DNA of 64,000 nucleotides from an uncultured virus (IMG/VR IMGVR_UViG_3300044959_000200) (lineage: Duplodnaviria > Heunggongvirae > Uroviricota > Caudoviricetes): IMG/VR virus record IMGVR_UViG_3300044959_000200, positions 1 through 64,000 of that record. One strand, 5' to 3'. This document shows positions 826 to 58,492 of this stretch, in pieces. The position numbers and the translations under genes are program-made. Below the pieces are notes generated by a model. That model searched no databases. It saw only the letters and a program-made list of their open reading frames with translations, and was not told where the DNA came from. Positions within the stretch are counted from its first letter, which is position 1. Every line of letters starts with the position of its first letter.

Positions 826-1154
826 ATTGCCACCACCTGGTTTAAAGTGGCATGAAGGGCGCGCACATTGCGCGCCACGTCGATATTTCTATCTATCTTC
901 ACTGCAAAACCCCCGGCTTGCACAGCCAAGTAAAGCAACGCAAGCCGTGTAGAAGACTTTGAGTCGTACAAAGCATGCGCAACGTGCGCATCGTAAGCAG
1001 CGCGCACGTTGCGAACGATTTCATCGAGGCTAACAGCTTCTGCTCTAAAGGAGCGTTGTAGCTCCTGCTCCAACGCAGTAATCAATTTGTAATACCGCGC
1101 TAGAGCTCGAATTCGACCCGTCGATCGCATAAAAAACCTCCTTTTGGAGCCCAC
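822..1154 (-). CDS. Hypothetical protein (start probably ATG at 1130)
   Basis: AAGGAGG RBS precedes the internal ATG; coupled to 544..825. Confidence 0.7.
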   Translation of the reverse strand: MGSKRRFFMRSTGRIRALARYYKLITALEQELQRSFRAEAVSLDEIVRNVRAAYDAHVAHALYDSKSSTRLALLYLAVQAGGFAVKIDRNIDVARNVRALHATLNQVVAI

Positions 1155-1260
1155 AGCACGCGGCTCCGCAAACTTGTACCAGTTTCCCCAAGCAATTTAT
1201 GAAAATACGCTGGACTTAAAAACAACCCATACCTTGTCGCTCACAATGCACTCTTAGCAG

Positions 1261-1522
1261 GGTCTCAAACGCCGACGAGCTTGCCGTTGCACAGCGCGCA
1301 CAGCGCGCGCAACGTTCGCAACGTGCGCAACGTGCGCAACGCATACCTGTAAGGTCGCAAACGCCGACGGGCTTGCCGTTGCGCAGCGCGCTCAACGCGC
1401 GCCATTCCCCATTGAGAGCACGACAAAGAGTAAGAAGGGAGTCTCAAACGCCGACGGGCTTTACGCCGTACGACGTGCGCAGCGTGCGTCAAGGTCTCAA
1501 ACGCCGACGGGCTTGACGTTGC
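1261..1522 (+). repeat. Left array: 4 copies of about 30 bp GGTCTCAAACGCCGACGGGCTTG(C/A)CGTTGC
   Basis: Copies start at about 1261, 1353, 1440 and 1493, separated by GCGC-rich linkers. Confidence 0.9.
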
Positions 1523-1570
1523 GCAAAGCGCGCACTTTGCGCGCGTTGTAGGCTAAACAGAGAGTGATGT

Positions 1571-1733
1571 CCACAATGTCAGTTAGTGTGTGTTGTGTAC
1601 TAAGCAGGGAGGACTAACCACAATGTCAGTTAGTGTATGTTGTGTACTAAACAGGGAGCGCTAACCACAATGTCAATTAGTGTATGTTGTGTACTAAACA
1701 GGGAGCGCTAACCACAATGTCAGTTAGTGTATG
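1571..1733 (+). repeat. 47-bp tandem repeat, 3.5 copies
   Basis: CCACAATGTCAGTTAGTGTATGTTGTGTACTAAACAGGGAGCGCTAA units start at 1571, 1618, 1665 and 1712 (partial). Confidence 0.95.
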
Positions 1734-2023
1734 ATATTGTCTACTTTGTTCTAATTGTAATCTTATGTCTTGACAAAACAGATATAACCTCCTATTCACA
1801 CACTGTAACTTATCTTTCTTACCATATCGTACAATTTCTACATATGTGCATAAACAATACCCTAACACACATTATCCGTACATTTCACACTGTGTAGGAC
1901 AATAACTTATTGTAATCTAAATCGATTACATTACGCACATCGTACTACACAGACATCGCTGCTTTATGGCGCACAACTGCACAAAAATTCCAGCAAATTG
2001 GCACAGATTGACACATTTTTTCT

Positions 2024-2431
2024 TTATAATTCGAAAGTGGTTATTTGCCACTAATCGAAAATAAAAATAGACCAGATGTGTATGTGCGTGCGCGTACGCA
2101 TGCGCGTACGCGTGCGCGCGCGCGAGCGCGAGCGCCCCCCCAAAGTCATGGCGGAATACGCCTAACATGTTGAAATCACACGGAAATTTGGCAGGAATAT
2201 TTTTTGCAATCGCGTTCAATCTCTCCCTCTCTCTTTTCCCCACCAAAAACTATATATACGTCACTCGCGAGAAATGTAGGTAAATGTATGACAAACACAT
2301 ACATGCATACTCATGCGGGCGCGTGCACACACCCGTCGCGCACGCGCGTGCGCGCACGCGCACACCCGCATGTGTATGCCTGACCTATTTTTATTTTCGA
2401 TTAGTCGAAAATAACCACTTTCGATTTATAA
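2024..2431. repeat. 47-bp inverted repeat pair (2024-2070 / 2385-2431) enclosing alternating purine-pyrimidine tracts
   Basis: 44/47 identity between the left arm and the reverse complement of the right arm. Confidence 0.95.
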
Positions 2432-2455
2432 TGAACGGCGCACGAGGTGCTCACG

Positions 2456-2851
2456 ATGCTGATCAAAGACCGCGCAATCCCCTTCTCGCTCTCGATCCCG
2501 TACACCAAGCTGGTGCGCCTGGAGCGCGTGCTAAAGCTCGCCGCGCACCAAGGGCGCCTCACAAGCGACCCGAATCGGCCTAACAAGCTCGCAGCCGAAG
2601 CGTTGATGGTGCTGTGCGCTCAGTGGGAGGCTGAGTTCCGCGCCCAAGGCTTGCTCCCCCATGAAGACCCAATCGCGCCTGGAATGGCTTCCGCAAGCGA
2701 GCAGATCGACGCCGCGCGCCTTGCTACCGACCCAGACGCACGCGCACGCGCTCGCGCTGCCCAGGGTTTCGGCCTTCCTCCCAGCAGCCCTGACACCCAA
2801 CCCAATGTCTTCTCAGAACCACCGGGGATCGACTGGGACACGTTACGTTGA
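2456..2851 (+). CDS. Putative ribbon-helix-helix-like DNA-binding protein with Pro-rich tail
   Basis: GAGG RBS before ATG 2456, TATAAT at 2427-2432. Alternating strand FSLSIP, then amphipathic helices TKLVRLERVLKLAA and NKLAAEALMVLCAQW. Fold inferred by eye. Confidence 0.55.
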   Translation: MLIKDRAIPFSLSIPYTKLVRLERVLKLAAHQGRLTSDPNRPNKLAAEALMVLCAQWEAEFRAQGLLPHEDPIAPGMASASEQIDAARLATDPDARARARAAQGFGLPPSSPDTQPNVFSEPPGIDWDTLR

Positions 2852-3021
2852 AACCCTGGCGCCAACGAACGGGAAGGGCCCTTCCGGGCTTTTTATACCC
2901 CCTCAAGCTAGGGGGGTAGCCAGCTGGGCCTTGAGCCGCTTGTAACGCCTGCTAGAGGCCTTCATTTGCCAATCCCTCTTCCGGAGTTCGACAGCGGGCT
3001 CGCCAAAAAATCGTCTAACCC

Positions 3022-3410
3022 CCTCTTGACTTTTACACTGTTTTGTGATTGGCCCGCGCCACTAAACAAAATCCTCTTGACTTTTACGCCGTTTTGTGTC
3101 TAGCGCGCGTCGCTTAGCAAAGCCCAGCGGCGTTTGAGCGCCCTTCCTCGCATTCGCGCGCGTCGCTTAGCAAAGCCCAGCGGCGTTTGAGCGCCCCTCC
3201 TTGTGTGCGCACGCTGCTTAGCCAAGCCCAGCGGCGTTTGAGCGGCCTTTTCGTGTGCGCGTTGCTTAGCAAAGCCCCGCGGCGTTTGAGCGCCTTATGA
3301 GCGCCTTATGAGCGTTGCTTAGCAAAGCCCCGCGGCGTTTGAGCGCCTTATGAGCGCCTTATGAGCGCCTTATGAGCGCCTTATGAGCGCGCTACTTAGC
3401 AAAACCTCGC
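3022..3410 (-). repeat. Right array: 5 copies (+1 degenerate) of GCTTAGCAAAGCCC(A/C)GCGGCGTTTGAGCGCC, two CCTCTTGACTTTTAC units and 11-bp TGAGCGCCTTA micro-repeats
   Basis: Copies at 3112, 3165, 3216, 3264, 3317 (about 50 bp period); CCTCTTGACTTTTAC at 3022 and 3073. Confidence 0.9.
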
Positions 3411-3454
3411 GATGTTTCGCCCCCTATGCCGAGCGCATCAAATTTTTCGGGGTC

Positions 3455-3483
3455 TTGCATCCCCTTGTTGCGATCGGCATAAT
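3455..3483 (+). promoter_or_regulatory. Sigma70-like promoter
   Basis: TTGCAT-N17-CATAAT, 12 nt upstream of ATG 3496. Confidence 0.55.
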
Positions 3484-3495
3484 ATTTTAGTTGTT

Positions 3496-3921
3496 ATGTT
3501 TCATTATCGAACAAAACATGCGGGTATTTCTGTGGACCTTGCAAGCAGACTTCGGCCGTCCTTGACCAAGCGCGCATTTCTTAGCGGTGTTCTGCGCCGT
3601 TTTGGAGATCTTGCTCACAAAAATCCTGCGCGTGCGCTTACGTACACGCACGCAATTGATCAAGGTCTACGTGGTGCGCTTTATGGAGGTTTGATTGGCG
3701 GTGCGGGCGGTATGTTGCTCGCGCACCCTGGAGAGGAAGAAAATATGGCGCTTCGCGGCGCGCTTCTTGGCGCTCTTAGCGGTGGAGTGTACGGCGGGTT
3801 TACTGGGCGACAGGATGCTAAAAAGCTCCTTTCTACACGCGAGGGAATCAATGCCTTGGCTGGGCGCCTCTCGGCTCTGCACTCAGCGGGTAGACCTCTC
3901 TCGTATGCCTTTACGTCGTAA
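3496..3921 (+). CDS. Glycine-zipper protein, possible virion/membrane protein
   Basis: Two GxxxG-rich segments (GALYGGLIGGAGG; GALLGALSGGVYGG); promoter upstream, terminator downstream. Confidence 0.65.
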   Translation: MFHYRTKHAGISVDLASRLRPSLTKRAFLSGVLRRFGDLAHKNPARALTYTHAIDQGLRGALYGGLIGGAGGMLLAHPGEEENMALRGALLGALSGGVYGGFTGRQDAKKLLSTREGINALAGRLSALHSAGRPLSYAFTS

Positions 3922-3941
3922 TTGTTTTTTTCTTACGGCCA

Positions 3942-3985
3942 AAATAAAGCACCACAAGGCTTTGAAGCCCTGTGGTGCTTTATTT
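3942..3985. terminator. Bidirectional terminator
   Basis: AAATAAAGCACCACA / TGTGGTGCTTTATTT stem between convergent genes. Confidence 0.8.
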
Positions 3986-3989
3986 CGTG

Positions 3990-4289
3990 TTAGGTTTGTG
4001 AAAATATGATTTGATTGAGGCGCTCTATATCGCCATCGGCGATAGCGTCGATAACGTCATCTGCGTGTTCGACACGGCAGTTGAGATCTCCCACCCCGGG
4101 CTCAACGTTTCCATTGCGAGTCACGTATAGATCGATGGTGACGTATCCATCTTTGGGTGGGCAGTAAGCGAACAGAGCGCCTACGTTGTCTTTGTCTGGC
4201 AGTACTTCGCGTACGCGGATGTAGTCTTGGCGTAACGCGCAGTTGAAGTTGTATTTGCGGCAAGCGTCGTCAAAGGTGAGTTCATTCAT
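3990..4289 (-). CDS. Hypothetical protein
   Basis: 99 aa ORF at the end of a packed operon. Confidence 0.8.
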   Translation of the reverse strand: MNELTFDDACRKYNFNCALRQDYIRVREVLPDKDNVGALFAYCPPKDGYVTIDLYVTRNGNVEPGVGDLNCRVEHADDVIDAIADGDIERLNQIIFSQT

Positions 4290-4310
4290 GGTTATTTTTC
4301 TTGGTGTTCA

Positions 4311-4904
4311 TTATTGTTCTTCATCGTCATCTGGTTTTTCTGCGGGGATTTCGTGTCCGCAGTTACCGCAGCGATCGCCGTAATGGCGATCAGGCTCCCA
4401 GACAATGCTCTCGCAGTGCTCACAGCGAGTGTGGTCGATCGCGAGCAGAGTTTTGCGTTCTTGCTCTAAGTACGCGTCGAATTCACCGGGTTCTATGAAA
4501 GTTTCGGCGAACTTTATGTACGCTTCAGTTGTTTTTGGGCATTCAGTTGCCCCCCTTAAGACGTGCGCGGCCCAAGAGAACAAACCGTGTTTGTAGGCTA
4601 CGTCAATATCACATGTATTGTTTTCGCAGCCGTAGGTGTGTTCTTTGTATAACGCTTGTTCCAATTTGTTACAAAGTATGTTCCGATGCTCTTTAGCGCA
4701 CGTGCGCAATGTATTCTTCCACGCTATGACATAATCAGCCTCTACGCCGATTTCGATAGCGGTTGTTATGAGGTTGCGTGCACGAGTCGAGGCATGCAGG
4801 TATGCATCGACAAGGTGATTTGTATAGTCTTTGTCTAGGGGTTTTGTGAGCCACTCAATAAATGCTTCGTACAATTCGACGTCGAGATTGTTTTTGTTCT
4901 TCAT
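4311..4904 (-). CDS. Hypothetical protein with C-terminal CxxC-CxxC zinc ribbon
   Basis: AAGGAG RBS; CEHC...CGNC. Confidence 0.8.
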   Translation of the reverse strand: MKNKNNLDVELYEAFIEWLTKPLDKDYTNHLVDAYLHASTRARNLITTAIEIGVEADYVIAWKNTLRTCAKEHRNILCNKLEQALYKEHTYGCENNTCDIDVAYKHGLFSWAAHVLRGATECPKTTEAYIKFAETFIEPGEFDAYLEQERKTLLAIDHTRCEHCESIVWEPDRHYGDRCGNCGHEIPAEKPDDDEEQ

Positions 4905-4927
4905 GCGTGTTCTCCTTGTTATTTGTG

Positions 4928-5599
4928 TTATTTGACAGACTCTCGAACGAATTTTTCCAGCGGCACGCCAGCTCGGTTGAAGGCGTCAACTACGCGTGGG
5001 TCGTTGTTGTAGTCAGCGTCGTAGATGATCTTGGCGACGCGCACTGACAACAACGCTTTGGCGCAATTCCAACAGGGAAAAGTGTTGACGTACACTACGG
5101 TATCTACTAAGGACGCACCGTACTGTGCGGCTTGGTAGATGCCATTTTGTTCGGCGTGCACAGTGCGCACGCAGTTTTCGCGGCCGTCAGTGATTACGAT
5201 GTCGTGACCTACTTCATCGCAGTGCGGGAGTCCTGGAGGGGATCCGTTGTATCCTGTGGCGATGATTCGGTTATCTTTCACGAACACTGCGCCAACGCGT
5301 TTGCGGTCGCACGTTGCGCGTCGTGCGATTAGGTGCGTTATATCTATGAAATACTCGGTCCATTCAAGTCGGGTTAGTGCCGATACCAGTTCAAAGAGAG
5401 GCACTCCAGAAGGGTGCATCCCTTCGAATTCGGTTCGTGGTCGAACCCAGACTTTGGATCCGTGTACTTCTCGGTAGACGACGACTTCTTGTGGAGGGTT
5501 GGAGCTATCGTGAGCAATTTGTTCGACGACGAACTCACCGCCTTTGCAATGACGGTAAACATGTTGAACTTTCGCGATAGTGCTCATAACACGCACCAT
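4928..5599 (-). CDS. dCMP deaminase with N-terminal DUF1653-like domain
   Basis: HAEQN and PCWNC zinc motifs, ATGYNG; N-terminus YRHCKG...VVVYR...WVRP..EF. Confidence 0.9.
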   Translation of the reverse strand: MVRVMSTIAKVQHVYRHCKGGEFVVEQIAHDSSNPPQEVVVYREVHGSKVWVRPRTEFEGMHPSGVPLFELVSALTRLEWTEYFIDITHLIARRATCDRKRVGAVFVKDNRIIATGYNGSPPGLPHCDEVGHDIVITDGRENCVRTVHAEQNGIYQAAQYGASLVDTVVYVNTFPCWNCAKALLSVRVAKIIYDADYNNDPRVVDAFNRAGVPLEKFVRESVK

Positions 5600-6010
5600 C
5601 TATTTGACGATGAAGATGATCTCGGCGTTACCCCAATTATTTGTTTTGAGTTGGATGTTCTTCAGTTGTTTGTGTTTGTTCATGAAAACATGAACGATTG
5701 TGTCTTTGCCGAGCGGTGATTTCTCACTGAGCTCGATAAGTTTGTTGATGACATCCTGTACTTTGAGGGCTGGTGCATGTTGCCAGTAAATTTGTTCTAG
5801 TGCATTTTTGTCGTTGTTTTTCAGTGCTTCTATCTCGCCTGGATAAAATTCAGTTAGCGGTTCCTTTACGGCGTTTTCGCCGAAGTTGTGTTTGATGCGT
5901 AGTTTTGTTGGTGAAAGTCGAGTGCATGCGTGCCACATTGCTTCGCCATCTTCGAGGCTGTGTGGGTGGTTGCAGTATTCTGGGATGTAAAAAGACGTTT
6001 TGGTGTTCAT
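5600..6010 (-). CDS. Hypothetical protein
   Basis: AAGGAGG RBS before ATG at 6010 (shorter than the ORF-track call). Confidence 0.75.
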   Translation of the reverse strand: MNTKTSFYIPEYCNHPHSLEDGEAMWHACTRLSPTKLRIKHNFGENAVKEPLTEFYPGEIEALKNNDKNALEQIYWQHAPALKVQDVINKLIELSEKSPLGKDTIVHVFMNKHKQLKNIQLKTNNWGNAEIIFIVK

Positions 6011-6030
6011 TGTTGCCTCCTTGTGATTAC

Positions 6031-6474
6031 CTAAAAGGTGTAGATTGTTGCTTCCCAATGTTCTCGGGGCAACGAGGGGTCGTCGGCTAGTTGTCGCGCG
6101 AGGGCAACGAACTGGCGGGGCAGTGTGTAATCGCGCTGTGTGTGCTCGTAGCGTACTGGCGATGTTTCGCTGCGCGGGTCGCGGACAGCGCAATGAAAGC
6201 CAGTTAAGCTAACGGTAAATTCAACACGCACGATTACTGTTGTCCTGCCAGTTTGCCGAGTCGCTGCGACTTCTTGCCTCCATGAGACGGTTGAGAGGTC
6301 TTGTCCGGAGCCGGGACCGACGCGAGATACGACTCGGGGATCGGGTAAGTTGCTTGCAAGGAGCAATTCAGTTAGAGCTACACTGTAGCGATCTAAAGCG
6401 TGCTCCATGCGGGCATAGCGTTCTTGTAGTATTGCCCGGTACTGCTTGATTAGCTCAGCTGGGGACATGTTCAT
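6031..6474 (-). CDS. Hypothetical protein
   Basis: 147 aa ORF, first gene of a packed run. Confidence 0.7.
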   Translation of the reverse strand: MNMSPAELIKQYRAILQERYARMEHALDRYSVALTELLLASNLPDPRVVSRVGPGSGQDLSTVSWRQEVAATRQTGRTTVIVRVEFTVSLTGFHCAVRDPRSETSPVRYEHTQRDYTLPRQFVALARQLADDPSLPREHWEATIYTF

Positions 6475-6492
6475 TTGTTTGTTGTGGATCTG

Positions 6493-6543
6493 AAAAGAAA
6501 AAGCCCGTTGTCTTCAGTTCCTGACGCCGAAGACAACGGGCTT
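6493..6543 (-). terminator. Intrinsic terminator
   Basis: 15-bp stem AAGCCCGTTGTCTTC / GAAGACAACGGGCTT followed by TTTTCTTTT on the minus strand. Confidence 0.8.
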
Positions 6544-6722
6544 GTGGGGGTGAAGGGCTCCCGTACCGTTTACGGTATCTCAACAAGTTTTCTTGTCAAG
6601 GGAACATGTACTCGTGTGGTCTTGTGCAAGCTCCGTTTGTTGTGGGTCTTGACGGCGTTGAAGCCACATGGACCCACAACCTAATCTTGTACCTTGTTAT
6701 CTGAATAATTTAGAATTTTTCC

Positions 6723-7046
6723 ATGCGATATACGGGAGAGTCTATTGAGCGTGCAATCCGACTTGCACTTATTGAACATCGGTGCGCACCTTCGGCGTCA
6801 ACTGCAACAAAGCTAGCGAAGCTGCGCGCGTTGCGCGCTCTTTATGAGACGAGCGTGTATGCGAACATTGCGCTCCCTGGGTTAGGTACAGCACAACGCT
6901 CGTTACGTGAGGCAACTGAGTGTTATCGAATACTGCGAAAGCTGCCGCCGGATGTACAGAGATCGGAGAGACGTGCGCTCAAGCGTGCGATCGCAGAGGC
7001 ACGTAAAGTGCCTATGGAGTTGCCTGAAGTAGATTTTACGGTGTAA
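6723..7046 (+). CDS. Hypothetical basic helical protein
   Basis: 107 aa ORF; TAGAAT 6 nt before the ATG. Confidence 0.65.
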   Translation: MRYTGESIERAIRLALIEHRCAPSASTATKLAKLRALRALYETSVYANIALPGLGTAQRSLREATECYRILRKLPPDVQRSERRALKRAIAEARKVPMELPEVDFTV

Positions 7047-7536
7047 ATGAATTGCCTTCATTCGTTTCGTTAAACGCCGCTGCGCGGCGCATGATTGCGG
7101 TCTGAAGGCGTTGTATAGTGCGCAGGTAATTTGCGGCTCGAATGCGCACAAGGGTGTTAGTAGTTTGGCGGCGTGGATTACATAGGCCCACGCGAAAACG
7201 CATGATTGCCCCATCGATGTTGCCGCACACTGCAAGGCTACGGTGCAGTGCGCCGGCTGCATGTAGATGAGTGCCGGCAGTATGTCGGCGATTACGAGAG
7301 ATCGGTGCACCCCAATTGCCCCCCTCTCCCTTATCGCAACCTAAGTGCGTTTCGGCAAAGGCGACAGCAGCTAGTACCTCGCGAGGTACGTCTGGATAGC
7401 GAGCAAAGGCCTCATCGAGCTGCGCTTCAATATGTGCACGGTTTTGTTCTATGCACGCTCGATTATTGCCAGACATATATGGAAAAAGATCGAGGATGAT
7501 GGAGATAATCAGAGCTGAAGTCAAAGTTGAAGACAT
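7036..7536 (-). CDS. Lytic transglycosylase/lysozyme-like protein with hydrophobic N-terminus
   Basis: VPREVLAAVAFAETHLG resembles the SLT catalytic-Glu helix; start uncertain. Confidence 0.5.
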   Translation of the reverse strand: MSSTLTSALIISIILDLFPYMSGNNRACIEQNRAHIEAQLDEAFARYPDVPREVLAAVAFAETHLGCDKGEGGNWGAPISRNRRHTAGTHLHAAGALHRSLAVCGNIDGAIMRFRVGLCNPRRQTTNTLVRIRAANYLRTIQRLQTAIMRRAAAFNETNEGNSFTP

Positions 7537-7576
7537 GGACGTGAGGCGTAGCGCAACGTAACAATCCTGACAACAC

Positions 7577-7825
7577 TTAAGTTTGTGTTTGCCTGTTGTC
7601 ATATCGTTGCATTGCTCGCTGTAGATCCATGCCAATAGCTTGAATATCTGAGTGAAGTGCTTTCACAACCTGATCAAACCATGAATGCGAAATGGTTTCG
7701 GAAGTTTCATCATTTTCTTGCAACGCTAAACAGTAAGCATCGTGTACTAGTTGATCAGTACCTAAAACAAAACATTCATAGCACCAGCGAAGAAGAGGAT
7801 GATTAGTAGTTGTGTGTCTCGACAT
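7577..7825 (-). CDS. Hypothetical protein
   Basis: ORF from ATG 7825. Confidence 0.55.
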   Translation of the reverse strand: MSRHTTTNHPLLRWCYECFVLGTDQLVHDAYCLALQENDETSETISHSWFDQVVKALHSDIQAIGMDLQRAMQRYDNRQTQT

Positions 7826-7867
7826 GTTTACTTTGTATGAGTAATGTGTTCGTAAGGAGACCGGCAC

Positions 7868-8173
7868 ATGAAGAAGTTGAGTACGGGCACTTGCACCACA
7901 GTGGAGTACGTGATTGTTGACTCAAATGGTGTTCGTATTCCGAATCTTACGCCATTTACGGATATTGTTGCTGCTTTGAAGAAGGCGCGCGCTCTAGGGA
8001 CATGCAATACTGTCATGAAGGTAGCTGGCACAACGCAGATACCTATGGCACATCAAGGTCCTGGGGGTTGGTGCCCGAAAGTAAAAATTAAAGAACATAG
8101 GGGAGATCCTTGTAGTCGAGCAGCGCGTGCGCGATCACGGTTACGCCGTCGACGTCGGCGTTGGATTTGTTGA
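7868..8173 (+). CDS. Hypothetical protein with Arg-rich C-terminus
   Basis: TAAGGAG RBS; terminator downstream. Confidence 0.7.
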   Translation: MKKLSTGTCTTVEYVIVDSNGVRIPNLTPFTDIVAALKKARALGTCNTVMKVAGTTQIPMAHQGPGGWCPKVKIKEHRGDPCSRAARARSRLRRRRRRWIC

Positions 8174-8195
8174 TGTTTTGCACTATGTGATAGCT

Positions 8196-8250
8196 AAAAA
8201 AACCTAAACTCTATGGACACATAGGCCCATAGAGTTTAGGTTTCGTGTTT
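8196..8250. terminator. Bidirectional terminator
   Basis: 17-bp stem 8200-8216 / 8227-8243 between convergent genes. Confidence 0.8.
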
Positions 8251-8255
8251 ATTTT

Positions 8256-8807
8256 TTATTTGTTTTCACGGTGTGATTTGTTTGGGCCTTTGAATTTATT
8301 TTGTTTGTAGTGTTTTACTTTTCGCTTTGGTGGCAGTTTACCAGTGCGGTTAAAGTATTTCATCATGTGCTGGATCCAGCCGGCTATATTCAGTGCGCGA
8401 ACTTCTTTTGCTGTAGCTACGATAGCGCCGCCACTGAATTCGTCATTTCGCAATTTGTCGATAGTTGGAGACCAACTTATTGCCCAGATGGCTGTTGGTC
8501 GAAACGTTTTTAAGAATGCGCGTGCTAATTGACCCGCTGCCCAGGGATTGCCGTAGGCTTTAGAGTAGATATGTAGGCAGTTCTTGTTTTCTTCGTCGTA
8601 GTCAAAGTAGTACTGGAAGTTTGGGGCGAGGTAGGGGTCATTTTTATTTCGCCAGGGTTCATCGGCGATCAGCTTTTTGATCGTTTCTTCATTTTTGTCG
8701 CCAGCTAGTTGGACTGACACGTCACGGAGCGCATGCAATAACCAGCGCTCTTCATCAGCTGTAAGATGCGTGAATTTACCGGCGAATTGAGCGTAGTTGA
8801 TTATCAT
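8256..8807 (-). CDS. Hypothetical protein
   Basis: 183 aa ORF. Confidence 0.8.
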   Translation of the reverse strand: MIINYAQFAGKFTHLTADEERWLLHALRDVSVQLAGDKNEETIKKLIADEPWRNKNDPYLAPNFQYYFDYDEENKNCLHIYSKAYGNPWAAGQLARAFLKTFRPTAIWAISWSPTIDKLRNDEFSGGAIVATAKEVRALNIAGWIQHMMKYFNRTGKLPPKRKVKHYKQNKFKGPNKSHRENK

Positions 8808-8851
8808 GGTTTGTTTTACTTCTTATGGTGAATGGGTTGAGTAGTATATCC

Positions 8852-9583
8852 CTAGGAAGCCAGTATCTTTGGACCGAACCATCGAACCATGTCAGCTTCA
8901 AATACTGGCATAAGTCGTGGCAAACGCTCTTTTAGCCATGGGGTGATGGTGGCATCCACAGCTATTTCGCATTGGCGAACCCAGTTTCGGTGCCGTTGTC
9001 GTACAACCTTTGGTTCGTTGTATGGGTCGTTACTATCGGGCTCGCGAGGCATTTCGGGTACTGCTGGAAGCGTGTCGTTGTCGAGGGCTCCAAAGACGAT
9101 CGTTGCTTTGAAGTGATCGAGGGCTACTGGTTCATCTTTTGAGTCCCACCACCAATCGACAGGTGGTGGGAGCACTTTTATATGGCGTAGGTACTTTTTG
9201 TACCAGAAAAGGCTGTTGGCAATGTAATGTGGTGGTCCGTCTTTCACGTTGAACATGTGCCACCGCAATAGTGATGGGACGATTGCGTCGCGTTCGTTGA
9301 GAAGTCCGCGTTTTTCGAGCGCTACGAGTAAGTCGTGGAGACACCCAGCGGATTCTAGACATCGTTGTCCTTGAATCCACGTTGCGCCTTTTATTGTGAA
9401 GTACGCAGGTTGAAGGTCGTTGTCGCTTGGTTTATAGAGGCGGACTTCCCACCGTACTCGAAGCTTTCGTTGACCGGATGCGAGATCTTCTGGAACAGGG
9501 TATGTTGCTGTATAGGTAGTCTTGCTGATGTCGCGAACTGGCATTGTGATTTTTACCCAGCCTTTGAATAGGTAGAGGCGCAC
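8852..9583 (-). CDS. Hypothetical protein
   Basis: 243 aa ORF. Confidence 0.8.
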   Translation of the reverse strand: MRLYLFKGWVKITMPVRDISKTTYTATYPVPEDLASGQRKLRVRWEVRLYKPSDNDLQPAYFTIKGATWIQGQRCLESAGCLHDLLVALEKRGLLNERDAIVPSLLRWHMFNVKDGPPHYIANSLFWYKKYLRHIKVLPPPVDWWWDSKDEPVALDHFKATIVFGALDNDTLPAVPEMPREPDSNDPYNEPKVVRQRHRNWVRQCEIAVDATITPWLKERLPRLMPVFEADMVRWFGPKILAS

Positions 9584-9619
9584 GATTACTTGTCGAAGAT
9601 TTCGACAGGCTTCGATTCT

Positions 9620-10252
9620 TTACGCGCGAGGCATTGCGACGTAAACATCGCAGACTTCATACGGCTCTTCGCGCATTACTATGCCGGTGATAATGATTGC
9701 TGTACCAAATGGCCCTGTTTCGTAGTAAATACCGTCAATTTCTGCTGTGCCTCCGGGTGTGTCAGGAATAGTTGCTGTGCCTGTAATTGGCCGATAGACC
9801 ATTGGCATCCCGCACCCAGGACAGTACGACGCCGAAAGCGTCGTTAGTAATACGCGACGGCATTTTTCACAGTGCGCTTCGCGCAATGGCAATGGGGATT
9901 TAAGTTTTCCATGAGGATTTTTTGGTGTGTGTTGTGTTGTTTTTGAGTCACTGTTTTTGGGTGAAGAGTGTGCGGTTTTTGGTTCGTTGTTCTTGGATAC
10001 CTCCTTCGTACTTCGCTTAGGGGATGGTATATCGATGTTTGGTGGCAACCAATCGACTGCGTCAGGCGATCCGTGCTTGGCGCATGCGTAGTTTGCTACA
10101 TGCCCAGTAGACGTGAGTTGGGCATGATTGACTTTGCCACGTTTGCATTGGTGGCATGTTTGGGTTACTTCACATGGGCAGATACGCCGAATTAGGTTGT
10201 CGTCTTGATCTCTAATTAATTTGTACTCTGTGCCGCACTTGTCGCACTTCAT
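9620..10252 (-). CDS. Multi-zinc-finger protein
   Basis: CDKC, CPC, CHQC, CAKH, CEKC, CPGC. Confidence 0.75.
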   Translation of the reverse strand: MKCDKCGTEYKLIRDQDDNLIRRICPCEVTQTCHQCKRGKVNHAQLTSTGHVANYACAKHGSPDAVDWLPPNIDIPSPKRSTKEVSKNNEPKTAHSSPKNSDSKTTQHTPKNPHGKLKSPLPLREAHCEKCRRVLLTTLSASYCPGCGMPMVYRPITGTATIPDTPGGTAEIDGIYYETGPFGTAIIITGIVMREEPYEVCDVYVAMPRA

Positions 10253-10283
10253 GTGTGTTCTTTACGGCGTACATAGTTGTTGG

Positions 10284-11138
10284 TTAGACTTTGATGTACT
10301 TCGACGTAGCGCTGATGCTTCCGTCTTGCAGTGTTTCAAATGAGAAGTCTGCAAACAGTTCTGGCACAGTGTTCTGAAGCACCTTGAGCACTGGCACCAT
10401 TGCGCGACGTATTGCTACGTCTGCGGATTTTGCGCAGCGCATGAAGAGAACGTGGCGCCATGCGCGAACGTTGCCTGTGATCACGATCGGTGCTTCTACC
10501 CAGTTAGGCAGCACACGGCGCGCCGCACTTAGGAGTCGCTTTCGCCACTCCGTATTTGATTCTCCGTCTAGCTGAGGGTACTTGGTTCGGTATGCTTCAA
10601 TCCAGCGCCTATAGCGGTATAGGTCGTACGCCATGTCCTCTAGGGCGTCATGGACAAGTTCTGGATCGTTTTGAATGTCGTACGGTAAACAGAAGCGCAG
10701 CTTATCTTCGCCTACGTATCGTTGAGACACTTGTGAGTAGGCCATGCCAGCGCGGTGCCGTACAATCTCGTGAGTGACGGCGCGATCGACACCCCATATC
10801 AAGAATGTGTAGTTTGCGTGTTCTAGGATGGAGCCATGACCTTGTGTCATGATGCGCGTGAAGTATTTGTCAGCTTCAGCGTGCGGGGTGTGCAGTTGGC
10901 CTAGCGAGAGGTAGCAGATCTGGCCGGAGAATTTTGACAGCAAACCTCCATCGCTGATTAAGCTTCGTTCTAGCGCGTCCACTGATTCTTCGTAGTAAGC
11001 GTCGAAACCGTAGTCGTTGAGAAAAGGTTTTATTTCCTCAACGTTCACGCGTGTTTCAGCGATCATGGACACGCTCGGTGCGGTTGAGTAACGCACTCCG
11101 TTAGGAGCTTTGATAGTGGGGTATGTGATGCTTTTCAT
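10284..11138 (-). CDS. thyX: Flavin-dependent thymidylate synthase
   Basis: GHGSILEH, RHRx7S signature (RHRAGMAYSQVSQRY), GNVRAWRH. Confidence 0.95.
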   Translation of the reverse strand: MKSITYPTIKAPNGVRYSTAPSVSMIAETRVNVEEIKPFLNDYGFDAYYEESVDALERSLISDGGLLSKFSGQICYLSLGQLHTPHAEADKYFTRIMTQGHGSILEHANYTFLIWGVDRAVTHEIVRHRAGMAYSQVSQRYVGEDKLRFCLPYDIQNDPELVHDALEDMAYDLYRYRRWIEAYRTKYPQLDGESNTEWRKRLLSAARRVLPNWVEAPIVITGNVRAWRHVLFMRCAKSADVAIRRAMVPVLKVLQNTVPELFADFSFETLQDGSISATSKYIKV

Positions 11139-37327: not shown

Positions 37328-38026
37328 ATGGACGACACAAAGAATCGCGATCTAGAACTGTGGCGGCAGTGGAAACGAACGCAGTCGCCAGCTGATCTTG
37401 AAGCTCTGATCAAGCAGATGTGGCCGGTAATTAGGCGAGAGACTATGCGCTGGTCTGCCATTGTGCCACAGACAATGCTTGAAAATGAAGCAAAGCTGTT
37501 AGCTATCAAAGCGTTTCAAACTTATAGCCCAACAGCAGGAGCGTCACTTTCAACGCATTTGACTAATCAACTTCAAAAGCTTTCACGTACGGCGTACGCG
37601 AGGCAGTCGACGCTTGGTGTGCCTGAGCAAAAACGGTTGCTGTTTAACAACTACAACAGGGCATACCGTGAGCTCGAAGATTTACATGGTAGGCCTCCAT
37701 CACTCAACGATATCGCCGATTACATGAGAGTACCGCCATCAAAGCTTCGTGAAGTTGTAGATTTAGTGGGCAAAAAAGAGTTCATGGAATCAGGTGAAGG
37801 GCCTACCTTCATACAATATATGGACGACCCTGAGGTCGTACACCTCGCTTATCACGATATGACGCCAATACAGAAAAAAATATTCGAGATGCGCACTGGG
37901 TACGGAGGTAGTGCCGTAAAAAGCGGTAAGGAGATCATGCGCGCCACAGGATTGACGCAAGGACAGCTTTCGTATCAGCTTAATCAAATCAAAGCGTTGC
38001 TAGAGAAAGCGCAGCGGTTACGATAA
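37328..38026 (+). CDS. Sigma70-family RNA polymerase sigma factor
   Basis: Region 2 KAFQTYSP..GASLSTH; region 3 HGRPPSLNDIADYM; region 4 EIMRATGLTQGQLS. Confidence 0.85.
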   Translation: MDDTKNRDLELWRQWKRTQSPADLEALIKQMWPVIRRETMRWSAIVPQTMLENEAKLLAIKAFQTYSPTAGASLSTHLTNQLQKLSRTAYARQSTLGVPEQKRLLFNNYNRAYRELEDLHGRPPSLNDIADYMRVPPSKLREVVDLVGKKEFMESGEGPTFIQYMDDPEVVHLAYHDMTPIQKKIFEMRTGYGGSAVKSGKEIMRATGLTQGQLSYQLNQIKALLEKAQRLR

Positions 38027-55083: not shown

Positions 55084-55767
55084 ATGTCACATGCGATAGA
55101 GTTGCTCCGGAATCCTGAAGTTGAGCTGAGTGTAGCATGGCAAGCTGCAATGCATGCACTTGGCACTACGATTGGAGTTTGGGAACCAGATACTATTCGC
55201 ATTGAACTAGAACGGCACAAAGTACCTGCGACTGACTCGTTGATGGCGAAGCTATTAGCTGCGCAGACTATTGTGACGGGGTCTGTTTGGACTTACGACC
55301 ATGATGTGTTTTTTTCTATGGCGTTGGCTTGCGACGGTATCCCAGCTGCTGCTAACGCAATTCCTCATCCGACACCTGAGCAACTTTGCTGGGCTGTTTT
55401 GGAGATTGAGCGATTAACGGGTGAGCGTATCACTGAGGATCACGGCTTTGATCCAGATACAATCGATCCTGCTGTTGCCGCTGTGCTACATGATGAAGGT
55501 ATGGTATTGGCGCCGGATCCGTTGAGCTTTGCTCAAGATGTGCTTGATAAATTTACAAAACTTGACTGGGACTTCGTAAATCGCGTCGAGCAAGTGTGGC
55601 TTGAAAAGAAAAAGCTGCCTTACGAGGCTTTACAGCGTATACTTCGTGAAGAGCCGACTACAGCGCTCGACGTACAAATTCATCATTTGGCCATGTGCCG
55701 TGTACATTGCGACGAGCGTATGGAACGGCGTGTGCGTCAAAATGCAATCTTACAATACTCCGTCTAA
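55084..55767 (+). CDS. Hypothetical protein upstream of terminase
   Basis: 227 aa, overlaps the terminase start. Confidence 0.8.
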   Translation: MSHAIELLRNPEVELSVAWQAAMHALGTTIGVWEPDTIRIELERHKVPATDSLMAKLLAAQTIVTGSVWTYDHDVFFSMALACDGIPAAANAIPHPTPEQLCWAVLEIERLTGERITEDHGFDPDTIDPAVAAVLHDEGMVLAPDPLSFAQDVLDKFTKLDWDFVNRVEQVWLEKKKLPYEALQRILREEPTTALDVQIHHLAMCRVHCDERMERRVRQNAILQYSV

Positions 55768-57475
55768 TCAATCGAAGCGTTGTATTGAAGGGACACGTTC
55801 ATACTTTGCCGAACGTCTCCTAATGTGGGAGGGGAAACCATTTAGCCTGGAAGACTACCCAATGTTCCGGGCGATTTATGATGAGTCCCCTCAAAAAATG
55901 CTACTCAAAACTTGCCGGCAAGTCGGCAAGAGCATGACGCTCGCGACATTTGCAATTAGTGAGTGCGTTGTGATTCCGCACTTTAAAACATTTTTTATTG
56001 CGCCGACTAAAGAACAAACTCAAATTTTTTCAGTTTCTCGTGTCGGCAAATTAATGCAGTTTTCGCCGCTTATTCGTGACATATTTGTCAATGAGGAAAC
56101 CACAAATCGTGTGTTAGCGCGTTACTTTGCGCATGGGTCACAAATTGAATTTAGCTATGCCTCTGATGATGCGGATCGTTGTCGTGGCCGTTCTTGTGAT
56201 CGTCTGATGCTAGACGAAGTACAAGATATGCTGCTTGATGTTGTTCGCCCCGTTATCAAAGAATGTCTTGCAATGTCAAAAAAGGGGGGCTACCTCGTCC
56301 TTTGCGGTACACCGAAAACGATGGAGAACGGCATTGAGCAGATGTTCCAAGAATCAACGCAAACTGAGTGGGCGATTAAATGCGACAGTTGCGGCAGGTA
56401 CTCCATTTTGTTGAGTGAAACTCAGTGCGGTAAGCGGGGCCCAATCTGCACGAAGTGTAAATCATATTTGAATCCTCGTAATGGTGTTTGGGTTGATATG
56501 AATCCACAGCCACCAGATGAGGATGGGCACATTCGTCAAACCAAAGGTTACCACATATCACGGCCAATGATGCCTCAGTTTGTGCCTGCGGCATGGCCCA
56601 TAGGACCATTGCGTGATGCAGCGCTTGAAAAATGGAAAACTGATGTCTTATACAATCTCGAAGGACCTGAAGCTTACCCAATCTCAGTTTTTAGAAATGA
56701 GGTTATGGGGGTAAGTGACTCTCAAGGTCGTCGACTTGTTACTAAGGAAGTACTTCAAGCTGCGTGCGATGGTCCGCTGATTAGTCGAACGCCGACACGC
56801 GATAATCTCACAGGAGTTACTAAGATTGCTGCGGGTATTGATTGGTCTGGCGGCGGTATGGCAACAAAGTCGGGACCTGAAGGCGCAGTTACAATCAAAT
56901 CCCGCACAGTGCTCACAATCATCGGTAAACTTGGTCTTGGCCGTACACGTTTACTTTACTACAAGATATTTCCAGGCACATCGCCACTTCAAGAATTTGA
57001 AGAGATCTTTGATACCTTGATGCTCTACGATAAGGTTACTCACTACCGTATGTTTATCGGTGGCGATGCGGGTGAAGGTAATATGTCGATGGACATGTTA
57101 CGCAATAAAATCCAAAACCCGCAGCGTGTAATAAAGTTTCGCTACTCAGGTACGGCAGCAGCGTATCTATCGTGGAATAACAAAGGTAAGTTTGTAACGG
57201 TAAACCGTACAGTTTCTATTGACTCTCTTATGACAGCTCTCCTTCGCAAGGAGTTTCAATTTCCGCGTGAGTCTGACACGATCATGGAACAGCCCTTCAA
57301 GGACATCCTCGCGGAGTATGAAGAAGTGATCGGACAAACGGGAGCAACGCGTAAGGTTTGGCGCCACGCACCGAATCAACCCGATGACTTCTTGCACTCA
57401 CTGAACTTTGCACGTATGGCTCTACAAATTGGTAATCAAGAGGTGAACTTGACGTCATCCATTGACGATGACTAA
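55742..57475 (+). CDS. terL: Terminase large subunit (GpA-like, with Zn finger)
   Basis: CRQVGKS Walker A, LMLDEVQD Walker B, GTP coupling motif, CDSC..CTKC, AGIDWS nuclease, PDDFLHS. Confidence 0.9.
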   Translation: MQSYNTPSNQSKRCIEGTRSYFAERLLMWEGKPFSLEDYPMFRAIYDESPQKMLLKTCRQVGKSMTLATFAISECVVIPHFKTFFIAPTKEQTQIFSVSRVGKLMQFSPLIRDIFVNEETTNRVLARYFAHGSQIEFSYASDDADRCRGRSCDRLMLDEVQDMLLDVVRPVIKECLAMSKKGGYLVLCGTPKTMENGIEQMFQESTQTEWAIKCDSCGRYSILLSETQCGKRGPICTKCKSYLNPRNGVWVDMNPQPPDEDGHIRQTKGYHISRPMMPQFVPAAWPIGPLRDAALEKWKTDVLYNLEGPEAYPISVFRNEVMGVSDSQGRRLVTKEVLQAACDGPLISRTPTRDNLTGVTKIAAGIDWSGGGMATKSGPEGAVTIKSRTVLTIIGKLGLGRTRLLYYKIFPGTSPLQEFEEIFDTLMLYDKVTHYRMFIGGDAGEGNMSMDMLRNKIQNPQRVIKFRYSGTAAAYLSWNNKGKFVTVNRTVSIDSLMTALLRKEFQFPRESDTIMEQPFKDILAEYEEVIGQTGATRKVWRHAPNQPDDFLHSLNFARMALQIGNQEVNLTSSIDDD

Positions 57476-57514: not shown

Positions 57515-58423
57515 ATGAACACCACACGGTCTACTAACGGAACACGCACAACTGGAAGCATTCACTTCGCTGAGAATCTTGAGTTTATTCAAACACTACC
57601 GTCAGCTTCTGTAGATCTCATTTACATCGATCCTCCATTTAATACAGGGAAGATCCAGCAACGAACGCAACTTAAGACAGTAAGCTCCGTTGAAGGTGAT
57701 CGCACAGGATTTCAAGGTCGTCGCTATAAGAGCATCGTTGTCGGCACAAAACGCTTCAGCGACATCTTCGACGACTATCTAGCCTTCTTAGAGCCACGAC
57801 TTGTTGAAGCGCATCGCGTTCTAGCCCCTCATGGATGTCTCTATTTCCATATAGACTACCGTGAAGTTCATTATTGCAAAATACTACTAGACGGTATTTT
57901 TGGGCGTGATGCGTTTCTTAACGAAATTATTTGGGCGTACGATTATGGCGGTCGGCCAAAAAACAAATGGCCTCCAAAACACGATAATATTTTGCTCTAC
58001 GCTAAAGATCCATCCAACTATATTTTCAATGTCGATGAAATTGAGCGTATCCCGTATATGACCCCAGGACTTGTTGGACCGGAGAAGGCTGCGCGCGGAA
58101 AACTCCCAACCGATACGTGGTGGCATACGATTGTTCCAACGAACGGTTCAGAAAAAACGGGCTATCCAACGCAGAAACCTCTCGGTATTCTTCGTCGAAT
58201 AATTCAAGCATCAACACGACCAGACGCCTTAGTACTAGACTTTTTTGCTGGAAGTGGGACTACAGGCGCTGCGGCACTTGAACTAGGTCGCCGATTTATT
58301 CTTGTCGACAATAATTTAGATGCTTTAGTAGTAATGGCTAAGCGGTTTGAAAACGTTGAAGGTATTGAGTGGGTAGGATTTAATCCTGAACCATACCAGA
58401 AAAACAAAAAGGAGCATAAATAA
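57515..58423 (+). CDS. N6-adenine/N4-cytosine DNA methyltransferase, beta class, orphan
   Basis: DPPF precedes YPTQKP and DFFAGSGTT. Confidence 0.95.
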   Translation: MNTTRSTNGTRTTGSIHFAENLEFIQTLPSASVDLIYIDPPFNTGKIQQRTQLKTVSSVEGDRTGFQGRRYKSIVVGTKRFSDIFDDYLAFLEPRLVEAHRVLAPHGCLYFHIDYREVHYCKILLDGIFGRDAFLNEIIWAYDYGGRPKNKWPPKHDNILLYAKDPSNYIFNVDEIERIPYMTPGLVGPEKAARGKLPTDTWWHTIVPTNGSEKTGYPTQKPLGILRRIIQASTRPDALVLDFFAGSGTTGAAALELGRRFILVDNNLDALVVMAKRFENVEGIEWVGFNPEPYQKNKKEHK

Positions 58424-58431
58424 TCAAAGCC

Positions 58432-58492
58432 AAAAAAACGCCCCGTTTACTCCGTAAACCTTCTAATTTTACGAAGCGTAACTACGGGGCGT
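58432..58492. terminator. Probable terminator between convergent genes
   Basis: ACGCCCCGT / ACGGGGCGT stem with adjacent A run. Confidence 0.55.

Follow-up and report, generated by a model that had tools for sequence, protein, structure and literature searches.

Convergent repeat arrays, an inverted repeat and a small RHH-like gene form a candidate replication origin in a large uncultured phage

The DNA analysed here (the window) comprises bases 1-64000 of IMGVR_UViG_3300044959_000200, a 78,550-bp linear IMG/VR virus record (G000) from an uncultured member of the Caudoviricetes, with a CheckV completeness of 46%. Sequencing runs containing window DNA are labeled as hot-spring or microbial-mat metagenomes. 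We studied a locus near its left end (~1155-3495), termed the hub in the following, in which two arrays of a 19-nt core site face each other across an inverted repeat and the gene for a 131-aa protein, predicted to resemble ribbon-helix-helix (RHH) proteins. A first-pass annotation of the sequence had proposed that this is a cis-acting chromosome hub, i.e., a centromere-like site, an origin, or a packaging or terminus site. The window was compared with a close relative (G001, a 123,104-bp record, 97.6-98% identity) and with five loci carrying a homolog of the 131-aa gene: L037 (identical to the record G004, 77.6 kb, GC 0.67-0.68), L038, L039, L040 and L041, the last being a short, more distant contig in which no core site was found. 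The hub contains the following features:

1261..1542, + strand: left array, four units of ~50 nt at 1261, 1353, 1440 and 1493
1264-1282, 1356-1374, 1443-1461 and 1496-1514, + strand: cores of the left array
1289..1341: 9-bp micro-repeats in the left array, GCACAGCGC in 2.2 copies and GCGCAACGT in 3.9 copies
1553..1733, + strand: 47-bp tandem repeat, 3.9 copies with 90% matches, specific to the window lineage
1728..1930: AT-rich stretch, a candidate unwinding element
1969..2013, + strand: short GCACA-type repeats, adjoining the inverted repeat on its left side
2020..2142: left arm of the inverted repeat, its outer part with a leftward promoter-like pair
2050 to 2023, - strand: this leftward -35/-10-like pair, TGGCAA-16-TATAAA, read by eye
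2076..2124: perfect alternating purine-pyrimidine run of 49 nt, Z-DNA-prone, the longest in the window
2143..2313, + strand: asymmetric central segment, conserved in all relatives (alignment A3)
2204-2210, 2220-2241, 2253-2264 and 2273-2281: central motifs TTGCAAT, homopyrimidine run, TATATACGTCAC and AATGTAGGT, with ACAC...CATG as a further one
2314..2435: right arm of the inverted repeat, including a 29-nt alternating purine-pyrimidine run and a rightward promoter-like site
2405-2432, + strand: this rightward site, TCGAAA-16-TATAAT, from a consensus scan (10/12 positions)
2456..2851, + strand: gene for the 131-aa protein, with an alternative GTG start at 2447
2870..2893, + strand: intrinsic-terminator-like hairpin and T run after the gene (the consensus scan gave 4 sites vs. 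5.1 expected in shuffles)
3016-3037 and 3067-3088, + strand: two TTGAC...GTTTTGTG boxes (repeat family D8)
3104..3438, - strand: right array, five good units and one degenerate unit (3386-3438) of ~53 nt each
3120-3138, 3173-3191, 3224-3242, 3272-3290 and 3325-3343, - strand: cores of the right array
3287-3314 (2.5 copies) and 3340-3390 (4.6 copies): 11-bp TGAGCGCCTTA tandems, 100% matches, interleaved with the last right-array units

The core CTCAAACGCCGNNGGGCTT has nine matches at up to two mismatches in the 64-kb window, four on the + strand and five on the - strand, while 0.01 would be expected by chance and 0/100 shuffles reach nine. No further copy was found elsewhere in the whole 78,550-bp record at up to four mismatches. 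The opposed arrays are separated by 1.6 kb (1514 to 3120). Their homologous units exceed the core (left 4 × 50 nt, right 6 × 53 nt), are spaced 92, 87 and 53 bp on the left and 53, 51, 48, 53 and 77 bp on the right, and are mutually complementary between the arrays over up to 39 nt. Two opposed arrays of four and five copies about 1.6 kb apart, with a 47-bp tandem repeat and an AT-rich stretch (~1735-1930) between them, had been described in the first-pass annotation, and all of these were recovered. For the right array, to which it gave a period of about 50 bp near five helical turns, we measured a spacing of 48-53 bp (77 to the degenerate unit).

The copy number of the 9-bp micro-repeat varies among strains, with one unit more in G001 and in the contigs X3, X4 and X7. 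Short contigs at 3340-3390 have a depth 4-5 times that of their neighbors in two runs, hence the copy number of the 11-bp tandem is perhaps underestimated in the assembly. The TTGAC box has three near-matches only in the 123 kb of G001, two of them in the hub; a general promoter motif was rejected since core, TTGAC box, TATATACGTCAC and AATGTAGGT do not recur in G001. Nut-like RNA hairpins were rejected as well: all 12 array units folded as RNA (eight from the window, four from relatives) fold no better than shuffles, with |z| below 1.7. DnaA boxes are not significantly enriched beyond the repeats: at up to one mismatch there is 1 in the hub vs. 7 in 64 kb, and at up to two mismatches there are 10 in the hub vs. 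148 in 64 kb, 4/10 of the hub boxes lying inside copies of the 47-bp repeat. A single TTATGCACA at 1845-1853 (- strand) in the AT-rich stretch fits TTATNCACA, and every 47-bp repeat carries a DnaA-box-like CTAACCACA matching at 7 of 9 positions; neither is statistically significant.

The arms of the inverted repeat (2020-2118 and 2337-2435) are 99 nt long and 76% complementary, and can be extended to 121-123 nt (2020-2142 and 2314-2435). The 47-bp inverted repeat noted previously is real, with 43/47 complementary positions, but represents only the best-matching outer part of these longer arms. Both longest alternating purine-pyrimidine runs of the window sit in the inner arms; the second-longest covers 29 nt (2337-2365), whereas the third (20 nt) lies outside the hub. 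Between them, the 22-nt run at 2220-2241 is the only homopyrimidine or homopurine run of at least 16 nt in 64 kb. All three runs are located between the promoter-like sites of the two arms, and the motifs of the central segment occur only once in G001. A small dyad surrounds the invariant central motif ATGTAGGT in L037 (TACGTCAC, ~23 nt, GTGACGTA; 4777-4825) and is weaker in the window (2253-2300); the consensus scan placed a leftward promoter-like site at the central dyad in L037 and L038. In addition, the least stable 100-bp duplex of the window is found at 1728-1827, with a GC content of 0.29 and a mean nearest-neighbor energy of -1.155 compared to a window mean of -1.416 (standard deviation 0.076); the fifth least stable is 1983-2082. 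The GC content of 0.29-0.30 agrees with these energies. Unique repeated sites are gathered in the hub together with the DNA that melts most easily in the window and the strongest Z-DNA-, triplex- and cruciform-prone sequences.

The repeats of the hub are no assembly artifact, as the layout of G001 agrees and independent contigs bridge the hub. G001 differs by one additional 9-bp unit and one right-array unit less, and contigs from public runs of one sample span 1693-3132 and 1693-3314 in the same arrangement as in the window. The only interruptions of such contigs are found at the 47-bp tandem and in the right array. Positions 1551-2727 are identical in the window record and G001, compared to an overall genome difference of ~2.4%, which lends weak support to a sequence constraint on the hub. 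A megablast search of 1000-4000 against known phages gave no match. No Rfam family matched at gathering scores across the 64 kb, and relaxing the E-value to 1 over 1100-3600 returned low-complexity miRNA noise only, far under the cut-offs; an RNA gene in the hub was rejected on these grounds.

The gene at 2456-2851 is real. The first-pass annotation considered it the one plausible gene between the arrays, and we obtained 12 homolog clusters of 100 to 40% identity after scoring 294 candidates. In cellular genomes, none of 50 candidate stretches encodes a relative. An exhaustive profile search among 1.84 billion representatives yielded only eight proteins at E-values up to 0.001, one of which is a repetitive artifact of 1156 aa and another a protein of 1276 aa (E-value of 9.9e-05); it gave no bridge to a named family. 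The protein is composed of an RHH-like N-terminal domain (residues ~4-66), a low-complexity linker and a C-terminal motif (RLATDPDARARARAAQGF ... EPPGxDW). Across the family, the N-terminal pattern DR..PF..S ... R....L..A...G.L.....RPNKLAAE.L is invariant, the Pro/Ala linker is variable, and the C-terminal motif RLA.DP.AR..AR...GF ... P.G.DW is conserved.

The RHH-like N-terminus proposed previously found agreement in the structure models, which are RHH-like and dimeric, but not in profile searches. None of 12 family members matches any Pfam model at E-values up to 5, no PHROG matches the 131-aa protein, and a PDB sequence profile search gave six chance-level rows without any RHH protein. Atlas leads for MetJ (0.87) and RHH_6 (0.86) stay below the lead level of 0.9. 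In the AlphaFold2 model, residues 1-15 are extended and followed by helices at 16-31 and 42-64, with a predicted local distance difference test (pLDDT) of 80-90 across residues 11-70; the 10-residue loop between the helices is longer than usual for RHH proteins. Foldseek with the monomer model found nothing at E-values up to 0.001. However, a structural search of 48,161 chains placed many RHH proteins in the top 50, aligned over model residues 4-69, among them pCXC100 ParB, TacA, NikR, ParD2, the RHH domains of PutA and PrpA, the N-terminal domain of TraM, AmrZ and Arc, several of these being presumed RHH proteins, in part from their row titles. None has a Z above 4.2, which leaves the rows tied with each other and the scores weak in absolute terms; the top row, the plasmid centromere-binding ParB 3no7_B (Z 4.2, root-mean-square deviation 5.2, 59 aligned), is tied with others as well. 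Two copies of residues 1-70 were modeled as a homodimer with an ipSAE of 0.72 (runs 0.72, 0.73 and 0.72), compared to 0.00 for the best control. This model has 128 contacts, at least 95% of them common to the runs, a partner pLDDT of 86 and an intertwined interface which takes in residues 4-19 of both copies. The dimer mark applied is reached by 20/30 proteins solved as pairs and 1/23 solved as single chains, and passing it may reflect likeness of the model to solved RHH dimers. Judged from these models, the 131-aa protein is probably an RHH-like dimer.

Conservation in relatives, the absence of which would have spoken against the hub, was found in four loci. In L037-L040, the module has the order GCACA-type repeats, inverted repeat with asymmetric center, gene, TTGAC box, one or two core sites, and the next + strand gene; L039 is syntenic with the window on both sides of the hub. 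The relatives carry short GGCACA(G)- or GTGCACA-type repeats, with four to six GGCACA(G) copies of which several are 20-23 bp apart, and inverted repeats with arms of 75-110 nt that are 82-95% complementary and 234-277 nt apart. Their center consists of TTGCAAT, a (CT)6-9 run, A(T/C)TACGT, ATGTAGGT and ACAC..CATG. L037, L039 and L040 have one TTGAC...GTTTTGTG box each at the equivalent place, and the box of L038 is weaker. The downstream core sites of the four loci are one or two copies of AAGCC-N2-3-CGGCGYTTGAG each. Further, the arms co-evolve: their sequences vary between loci with complementarity kept, and changes on both sides affect 42/112 consensus pairs. Mismatches of the G:T and A:C types number 9:9, 2:5, 1:2, 0:2 and 0:2 at the five loci, i.e., there is no wobble bias, and a strand-specific RNA helix was consequently rejected. 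Co-changing arms without such a bias indicate that arm symmetry is maintained by concerted evolution or else at the level of the DNA.

The left array, the 47-bp tandem and the AT-rich stretch belong to the window lineage only and are absent at the equivalent place in L037-L040, where the relatives carry a gene for 213-308 aa. In both L037 and L038, a single inverted copy of the core precedes the gene by 2.7-2.9 kb, resulting in convergent single copies 3.3-3.5 kb apart; no left copy was detected in L039 and L040 at up to two mismatches. These far-left copies occupy corresponding positions in the coding regions of homologous proteins (37% identity), in a stretch with a distinct DNA motif but gaps in the protein alignment. 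Since L037 and L038 keep the inverted copy, convergence of the sites is older than the arrays. The ancestral part comprises the inverted repeat together with the gene and the right-hand core site(s), and in two relatives also the far-left inverted copy. With a core unique in 78.5 kb and a module conserved in relatives, the view of the hub as a unique, conserved cis-acting locus with a co-conserved small gene is supported.

Strand asymmetry changes abruptly at the hub. All skews are given in + strand letters. The GC skew at third codon positions (GC3 skew) of the four genes in 42-2851 (three on the - strand, one on the + strand) is -0.18, -0.26, -0.16 and -0.21, while the 12 genes in 3496-11138 (ten on the - strand, two on the + strand) range from +0.11 to +0.68. 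The sign flip is thus independent of gene strand (4/4 negative on the left, 12/12 positive on the right). The corresponding AT3 skew is positive in 4/4 left genes and negative in 10/12 right genes. Both changes fall into the interval 2852..3495, which contains the TTGAC boxes and the right array. Along G001, the GC3 skew is ~+0.3 at 3.5-30 kb, ~0 at 40-70 kb, ~-0.13 to -0.27 at 70-100 kb (with one lone - strand gene at +0.33) and -0.34 to -0.44 at 100-123 kb, in each case on both gene strands.

Whether these two arms meet depends on the map. In window orientation, the first 48.6 kb of G004 are colinear with 73.2-122.1 kb of G001, followed by ~19 kb without match, a homolog of G001 526-726 and the hub. 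Because of this gene order, the phage map closes on itself, and G001 lacks perhaps only a variable stretch of ~14-20 kb. With a closed map, the negative-skew arm reaches the hub on its left side, and the skew forms a sawtooth with a single, abrupt jump and a gradual reversal on the far side (~40-70 kb). The leading strand usually has G over C and T over A. Under this usual rule, the jump has the polarity of an origin, as G over C and T over A are found to its right. A fixed start combined with variable termination would be consistent with the gradient, as would later replication which is independent of the origin. GC skew is an established means of placing origins in large phages, and a bidirectional pattern is described for ~30% of huge-phage genomes (PMC7162821).

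The hub lies close to the contig start, where several different flanks join at 363-366, one of them a 13.9-kb contig. A physical genome end at the contig start was rejected because of these alternative flanks. At least three different left flanks are present in one sample, namely the window's own, a G001-like one and the 13.9-kb contig, whose 30-nt loose end is found in neither G000 nor G001. The joint is inside a small variable gene (42-368, - strand) with a Lys-rich N-terminus and CTTCTT-type repeats. A 12-bp AAACCCCTCCAG-type repeat at 452-485 (region 346-485) also fills the first 80 nt of G001.

Based on these results, we propose that the hub is the primary bidirectional replication origin of the phage, merged with an early control region, a reading to which we give about an even chance. 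Of the options in the first-pass annotation, it is the origin that is favored by the gene-strand-independent flip of GC3 and AT3 skew between 2851 and 3496 and by the least stable DNA lying in the hub. In the proposed mechanism, the dimeric RHH-like protein would bind the 19-nt core sites, recognizing the conserved unit AAGCC-N2-3-CGGCGYTTGAG, and possibly the symmetric arms too. The outward-facing arm promoters would transcribe away from the hub center, and negative supercoils arising between them might be absorbed by the non-B-prone center, aiding its opening. The opposed arrays, equally oriented toward outward-moving machines on either side, would bracket the domain and could act as landing pads of an initiator or regulator, or as handcuffing or barrier elements. 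Leading-strand synthesis would begin in or near the interval of right array and TTGAC boxes; the right array with its five units and one degenerate unit lies inside the interval of the flip, and the start point is deduced from the skew.

Several points weigh against an origin. The skew evidence comes from one lineage (G000 and G001 are 98% identical), and the GC-rich G004 and L039 have no comparable jump, their skew being flat or following the gene strand; this flatness neither supports nor contradicts an origin. A jump of this kind could also be seen at a mosaic boundary. It is possible that the parts do not work as one unit because the flip is 1.1-1.7 kb away from the AT-rich stretch, which adjoins the 47-bp repeat, and 0.5-1 kb from the inverted repeat. 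Left array, 47-bp repeat and AT-rich stretch are not essential to a conserved function, being lineage-specific. The core sites are spaced 48-92 bp apart, unlike classical iterons with units of 17-22 bp (about two helical turns). The initiator families Rep_3, lambda O and DnaA were not found among 60 window open reading frames (ORFs) searched against PHROGs and 13 hub-flanking and 83 further ORFs searched against Pfam, the latter not counting three ORFs that cross piece borders of G001. RHH proteins are not known to serve as initiators. The promoters are consensus matches, and the arm sites of L037, L038 and L039 failed the scan; in L037 and L038, the positions homologous to the right-arm promoter read TCGAAA-16-TGTAAT by eye, which the scan does not accept. 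Finally, protein binding to the core, arm or GCACA sites is putative.

Known systems resemble the hub in part. In the iteron replicons of mini-F (incB-repE-incC) and P1 (incC-repA-incA), compared with the hub in their layout, a small DNA-binding protein gene likewise lies between two arrays of one site in opposed orientations and similar copy numbers (four and five in the hub), one array being where replication starts. However, hub units are 48-92 bp apart instead of ~22 bp, the hub protein is RHH-like without a Pfam match (Rep_3 included), and the hub belongs to a large lytic-looking phage and has a long inverted repeat with non-B-prone tracts between its arrays. Phage P4 has initiator sites at two loci, ori and crr, in opposite orientation and bridged by looping, similar to the two separate inverted clusters of one putative binding site acting in cis around a replication gene. 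But the P4 binder is a large primase-helicase, whereas the only co-conserved protein of the hub has 131 aa, and looping of the hub is hypothetical. The lambda origin, four iterons and an AT-rich region activated by transcription, and the transcription-primed origins of T4 and T7 share with the hub repeats beside easily melted DNA, nearby promoters and the phage context. On the other hand, the lambda origin is inside its initiator gene, no O/P-like proteins were found in the hub phage, and the AT-rich stretch of the hub is confined to one lineage and distant from the flip. As an analogy only, oriS/oriL of herpes simplex virus is a palindromic origin between divergent promoters, flanked by inverted initiator boxes, just as the hub has a large dyad between divergent units with inverted sites on either side. 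Nevertheless, viruses and proteins are unrelated, and the hub arms are kept 171-277 nt apart by the asymmetric conserved segment.

The main rival explanation is an early transcription control region without origin function, in which a repressor of the Arc/Mnt/CopG type acts on the back-to-back arm promoters, the cores are operators or polar roadblocks, and the skew jump is an artifact of mosaicism or selection. We regard it as possible rather than probable. The two readings are not mutually exclusive. RHH proteins are typically repressors, the right arm has a promoter-like site (10/12) and the left arm a mirror site recognized by eye, the orientation of the arrays agrees with outward transcription, and the L039 core overlaps, in the consensus scan, the -35 of a promoter-like site before the next gene. 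The layout also recalls immI of P22, where the RHH repressors Arc and Mnt act at overlapping divergent promoters, in having a small RHH-type regulator gene near back-to-back promoter-like sites and mirrored elements downstream on both sides. However, no lysogeny genes were found in the hub phage, a variant acting through nut-like RNA has no support as the array units do not fold as RNA, and the hub coincides with the switch in strand asymmetry. A control region leaves unexplained the gene-strand-independent jump with its genome-long gradient, as well as the inverted core copy in the coding region ~3 kb away in L037 and L038. These convergent copies would suit a loop anchor, or a Ter-like fork trap or polar barrier, stopping forks or translocases at convergent sites (four vs. 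five in the window) wherever replication starts, with convergence kept even as single copies, one of them inside a coding region. Still, the polarity of the flip is that of an origin and not of a terminus under the usual rule, the terminus-type change being the gradual one at ~40-70 kb; no Tus- or RTP-like family matched among the ORFs scanned, and L039 and L040 are without a detected left copy. We therefore consider a barrier as such very unlikely. A further reading would be an origin of undescribed type, marked via convergent polar 19-nt sites by a family-less RHH-type protein instead of a winged-helix, DnaA-like or helicase-type initiator. Its opening would depend on supercoils from divergent transcription of the co-evolving inverted repeat and proceed through the Z-DNA, triplex and cruciform elements, and the sites would be topological or translocase barriers on both sides of the origin domain. 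This we deem improbable; if true, the core copy in the coding region of two relatives would be selected as DNA and not as protein.

A packaging or terminus site had also been among the initial options; here, a packaging site or physical end (pac/cos or a terminal-repeat boundary) would lie in the right array, with the arrays as small-terminase-type sites. Three contigs end within 1.2-1.7 kb of the module, and public-run contigs are interrupted in the right array. A sawtooth skew would also result if a linear genome whose replication proceeds inward from the ends were drawn as a circle. But the left contig end is an assembly break in a variable, repeat-containing small gene where the 13.9-kb contig joins, G004 and L039 continue through the equivalent place, and the breaks in the array coincide with repeats. 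The sole terminase match of the window, the large terminase at 55601-57475, is 52 kb away from the hub, and no ORF within 10 kb of the hub matches a terminase. A family A polymerase and helicases would not suggest end-primed replication either, and this option appears quite unlikely. The centromere option fared no better. For a plasmid-like partition system with a ParR/ParG-type RHH centromere-binding protein and two centromere arrays, one can point to the predicted RHH-like dimer, the centromere-binding ParB as top structural row, and repeat arrays flanking the gene. ParR consists of an N-terminal DNA-binding domain, a linker and a conserved C-terminal peptide, and the hub protein is comparable in this respect to ParR of R1 and pSK41, ParG and ParB of pCXC100. 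However, the structural Z is low and tied with other RHH proteins, the 48-92-bp units that carry the cores have variable spacers and are neither contiguous nor of helical-turn size, and the phage looks lytic with polymerases of its own. No partner NTPase was found among 60 ORFs (PHROGs) or 96 ORFs (Pfam). Six-frame searches of two incomplete records, G001 (123 kb) and G004 (77.6 kb), which together cover most of the map, gave no match to the CbiA/ParA type (PF01656; control positive in 14/14 genomes) or the tubulin type (PF00091; control positive in 13/14 genomes); ParM (PF06406) was likewise absent, but this is uninformative as the control genomes had no match either. Partition is thus highly improbable. 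A mobile or invertible cassette with the inverted repeat or the inverted core sites as its borders, as might be thought of for long inverted repeats evolving in concert and inverted cores bracketing the module, is hardly credible: the central segment has the same orientation in 5/5 loci, contigs of four runs from one sample, which drop rare variants, give one arrangement and no inversion joint, no recombinase or transposase matches near the hub, and L039 is syntenic with the window on both sides.

At the right border of the hub and beyond it, two further features were noted:

3455-3483: TTGCAT-17-CATAAT ahead of the next gene, read by eye
3496..3921, + strand: gene for a glycine-zipper-like small protein, its start moved from 3412 to 3496 via L039 6659-7111

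A conserved gene at 4311-4904 (- strand; L039 8393-9166), with synteny kept in the GC-rich relative, encodes a CxxC...CxxC zinc-ribbon-like motif at its C-terminal end. The 60 window ORFs scanned include a family A DNA polymerase, two helicases, ribonucleotide reductase, thymidylate synthase, dCMP deaminase, a RuvC-like resolvase, the large terminase, a methyltransferase and a sigma-like protein, the latter with a likeness to sigma-70 region 3 (37328-38026). The 83 ORFs of G001 add a piece of a multisubunit RNA polymerase (Rpb1 domain 5, E-value of 5e-16; 83508-85313, corresponding to L046:3508-5313), a ParB_N-domain protein, an SNF2 helicase and PD-(D/E)XK nucleases. Hence, the phage may carry its own transcription machinery. 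The ParB N-terminal domain belongs to a 352-aa protein (G001 70341-71399, - strand; ~70500-71558 of the window record; E-value of 2.9e-06, just above the cut-off) and makes it a second candidate DNA-binder for repeated sites. No family matched several very large ORFs (1232, 1374 and 1188 aa). A local GC peak at 58001-60000 (0.594 vs. ~0.48) over a PcfJ-like gene (58482-60107) may be recently acquired DNA. G004 (68% GC) and G001 (49% GC) are colinear over ~49 kb (L050-L053) with 70-88% amino-acid identity, and this difference of ~20 points represents a striking compositional shift within one phage group.

In large uncultured phages, origins are almost never located. Here, the skew jump, which is new beyond the first-pass annotation along with the closed map and the concentration of non-B sequences in the hub, pins a candidate origin to ~650 bp and ties it to defined cis elements and one small protein of a family without Pfam match. 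If the hub is a control region only, it is still a useful marker of the earliest transcription unit in this phage group. If, however, the RHH-like protein is an origin-recognition factor, the known repertoire of replication initiators would be widened, and the convergent sites conserved at the DNA level would offer a compact model for polar barrier elements.

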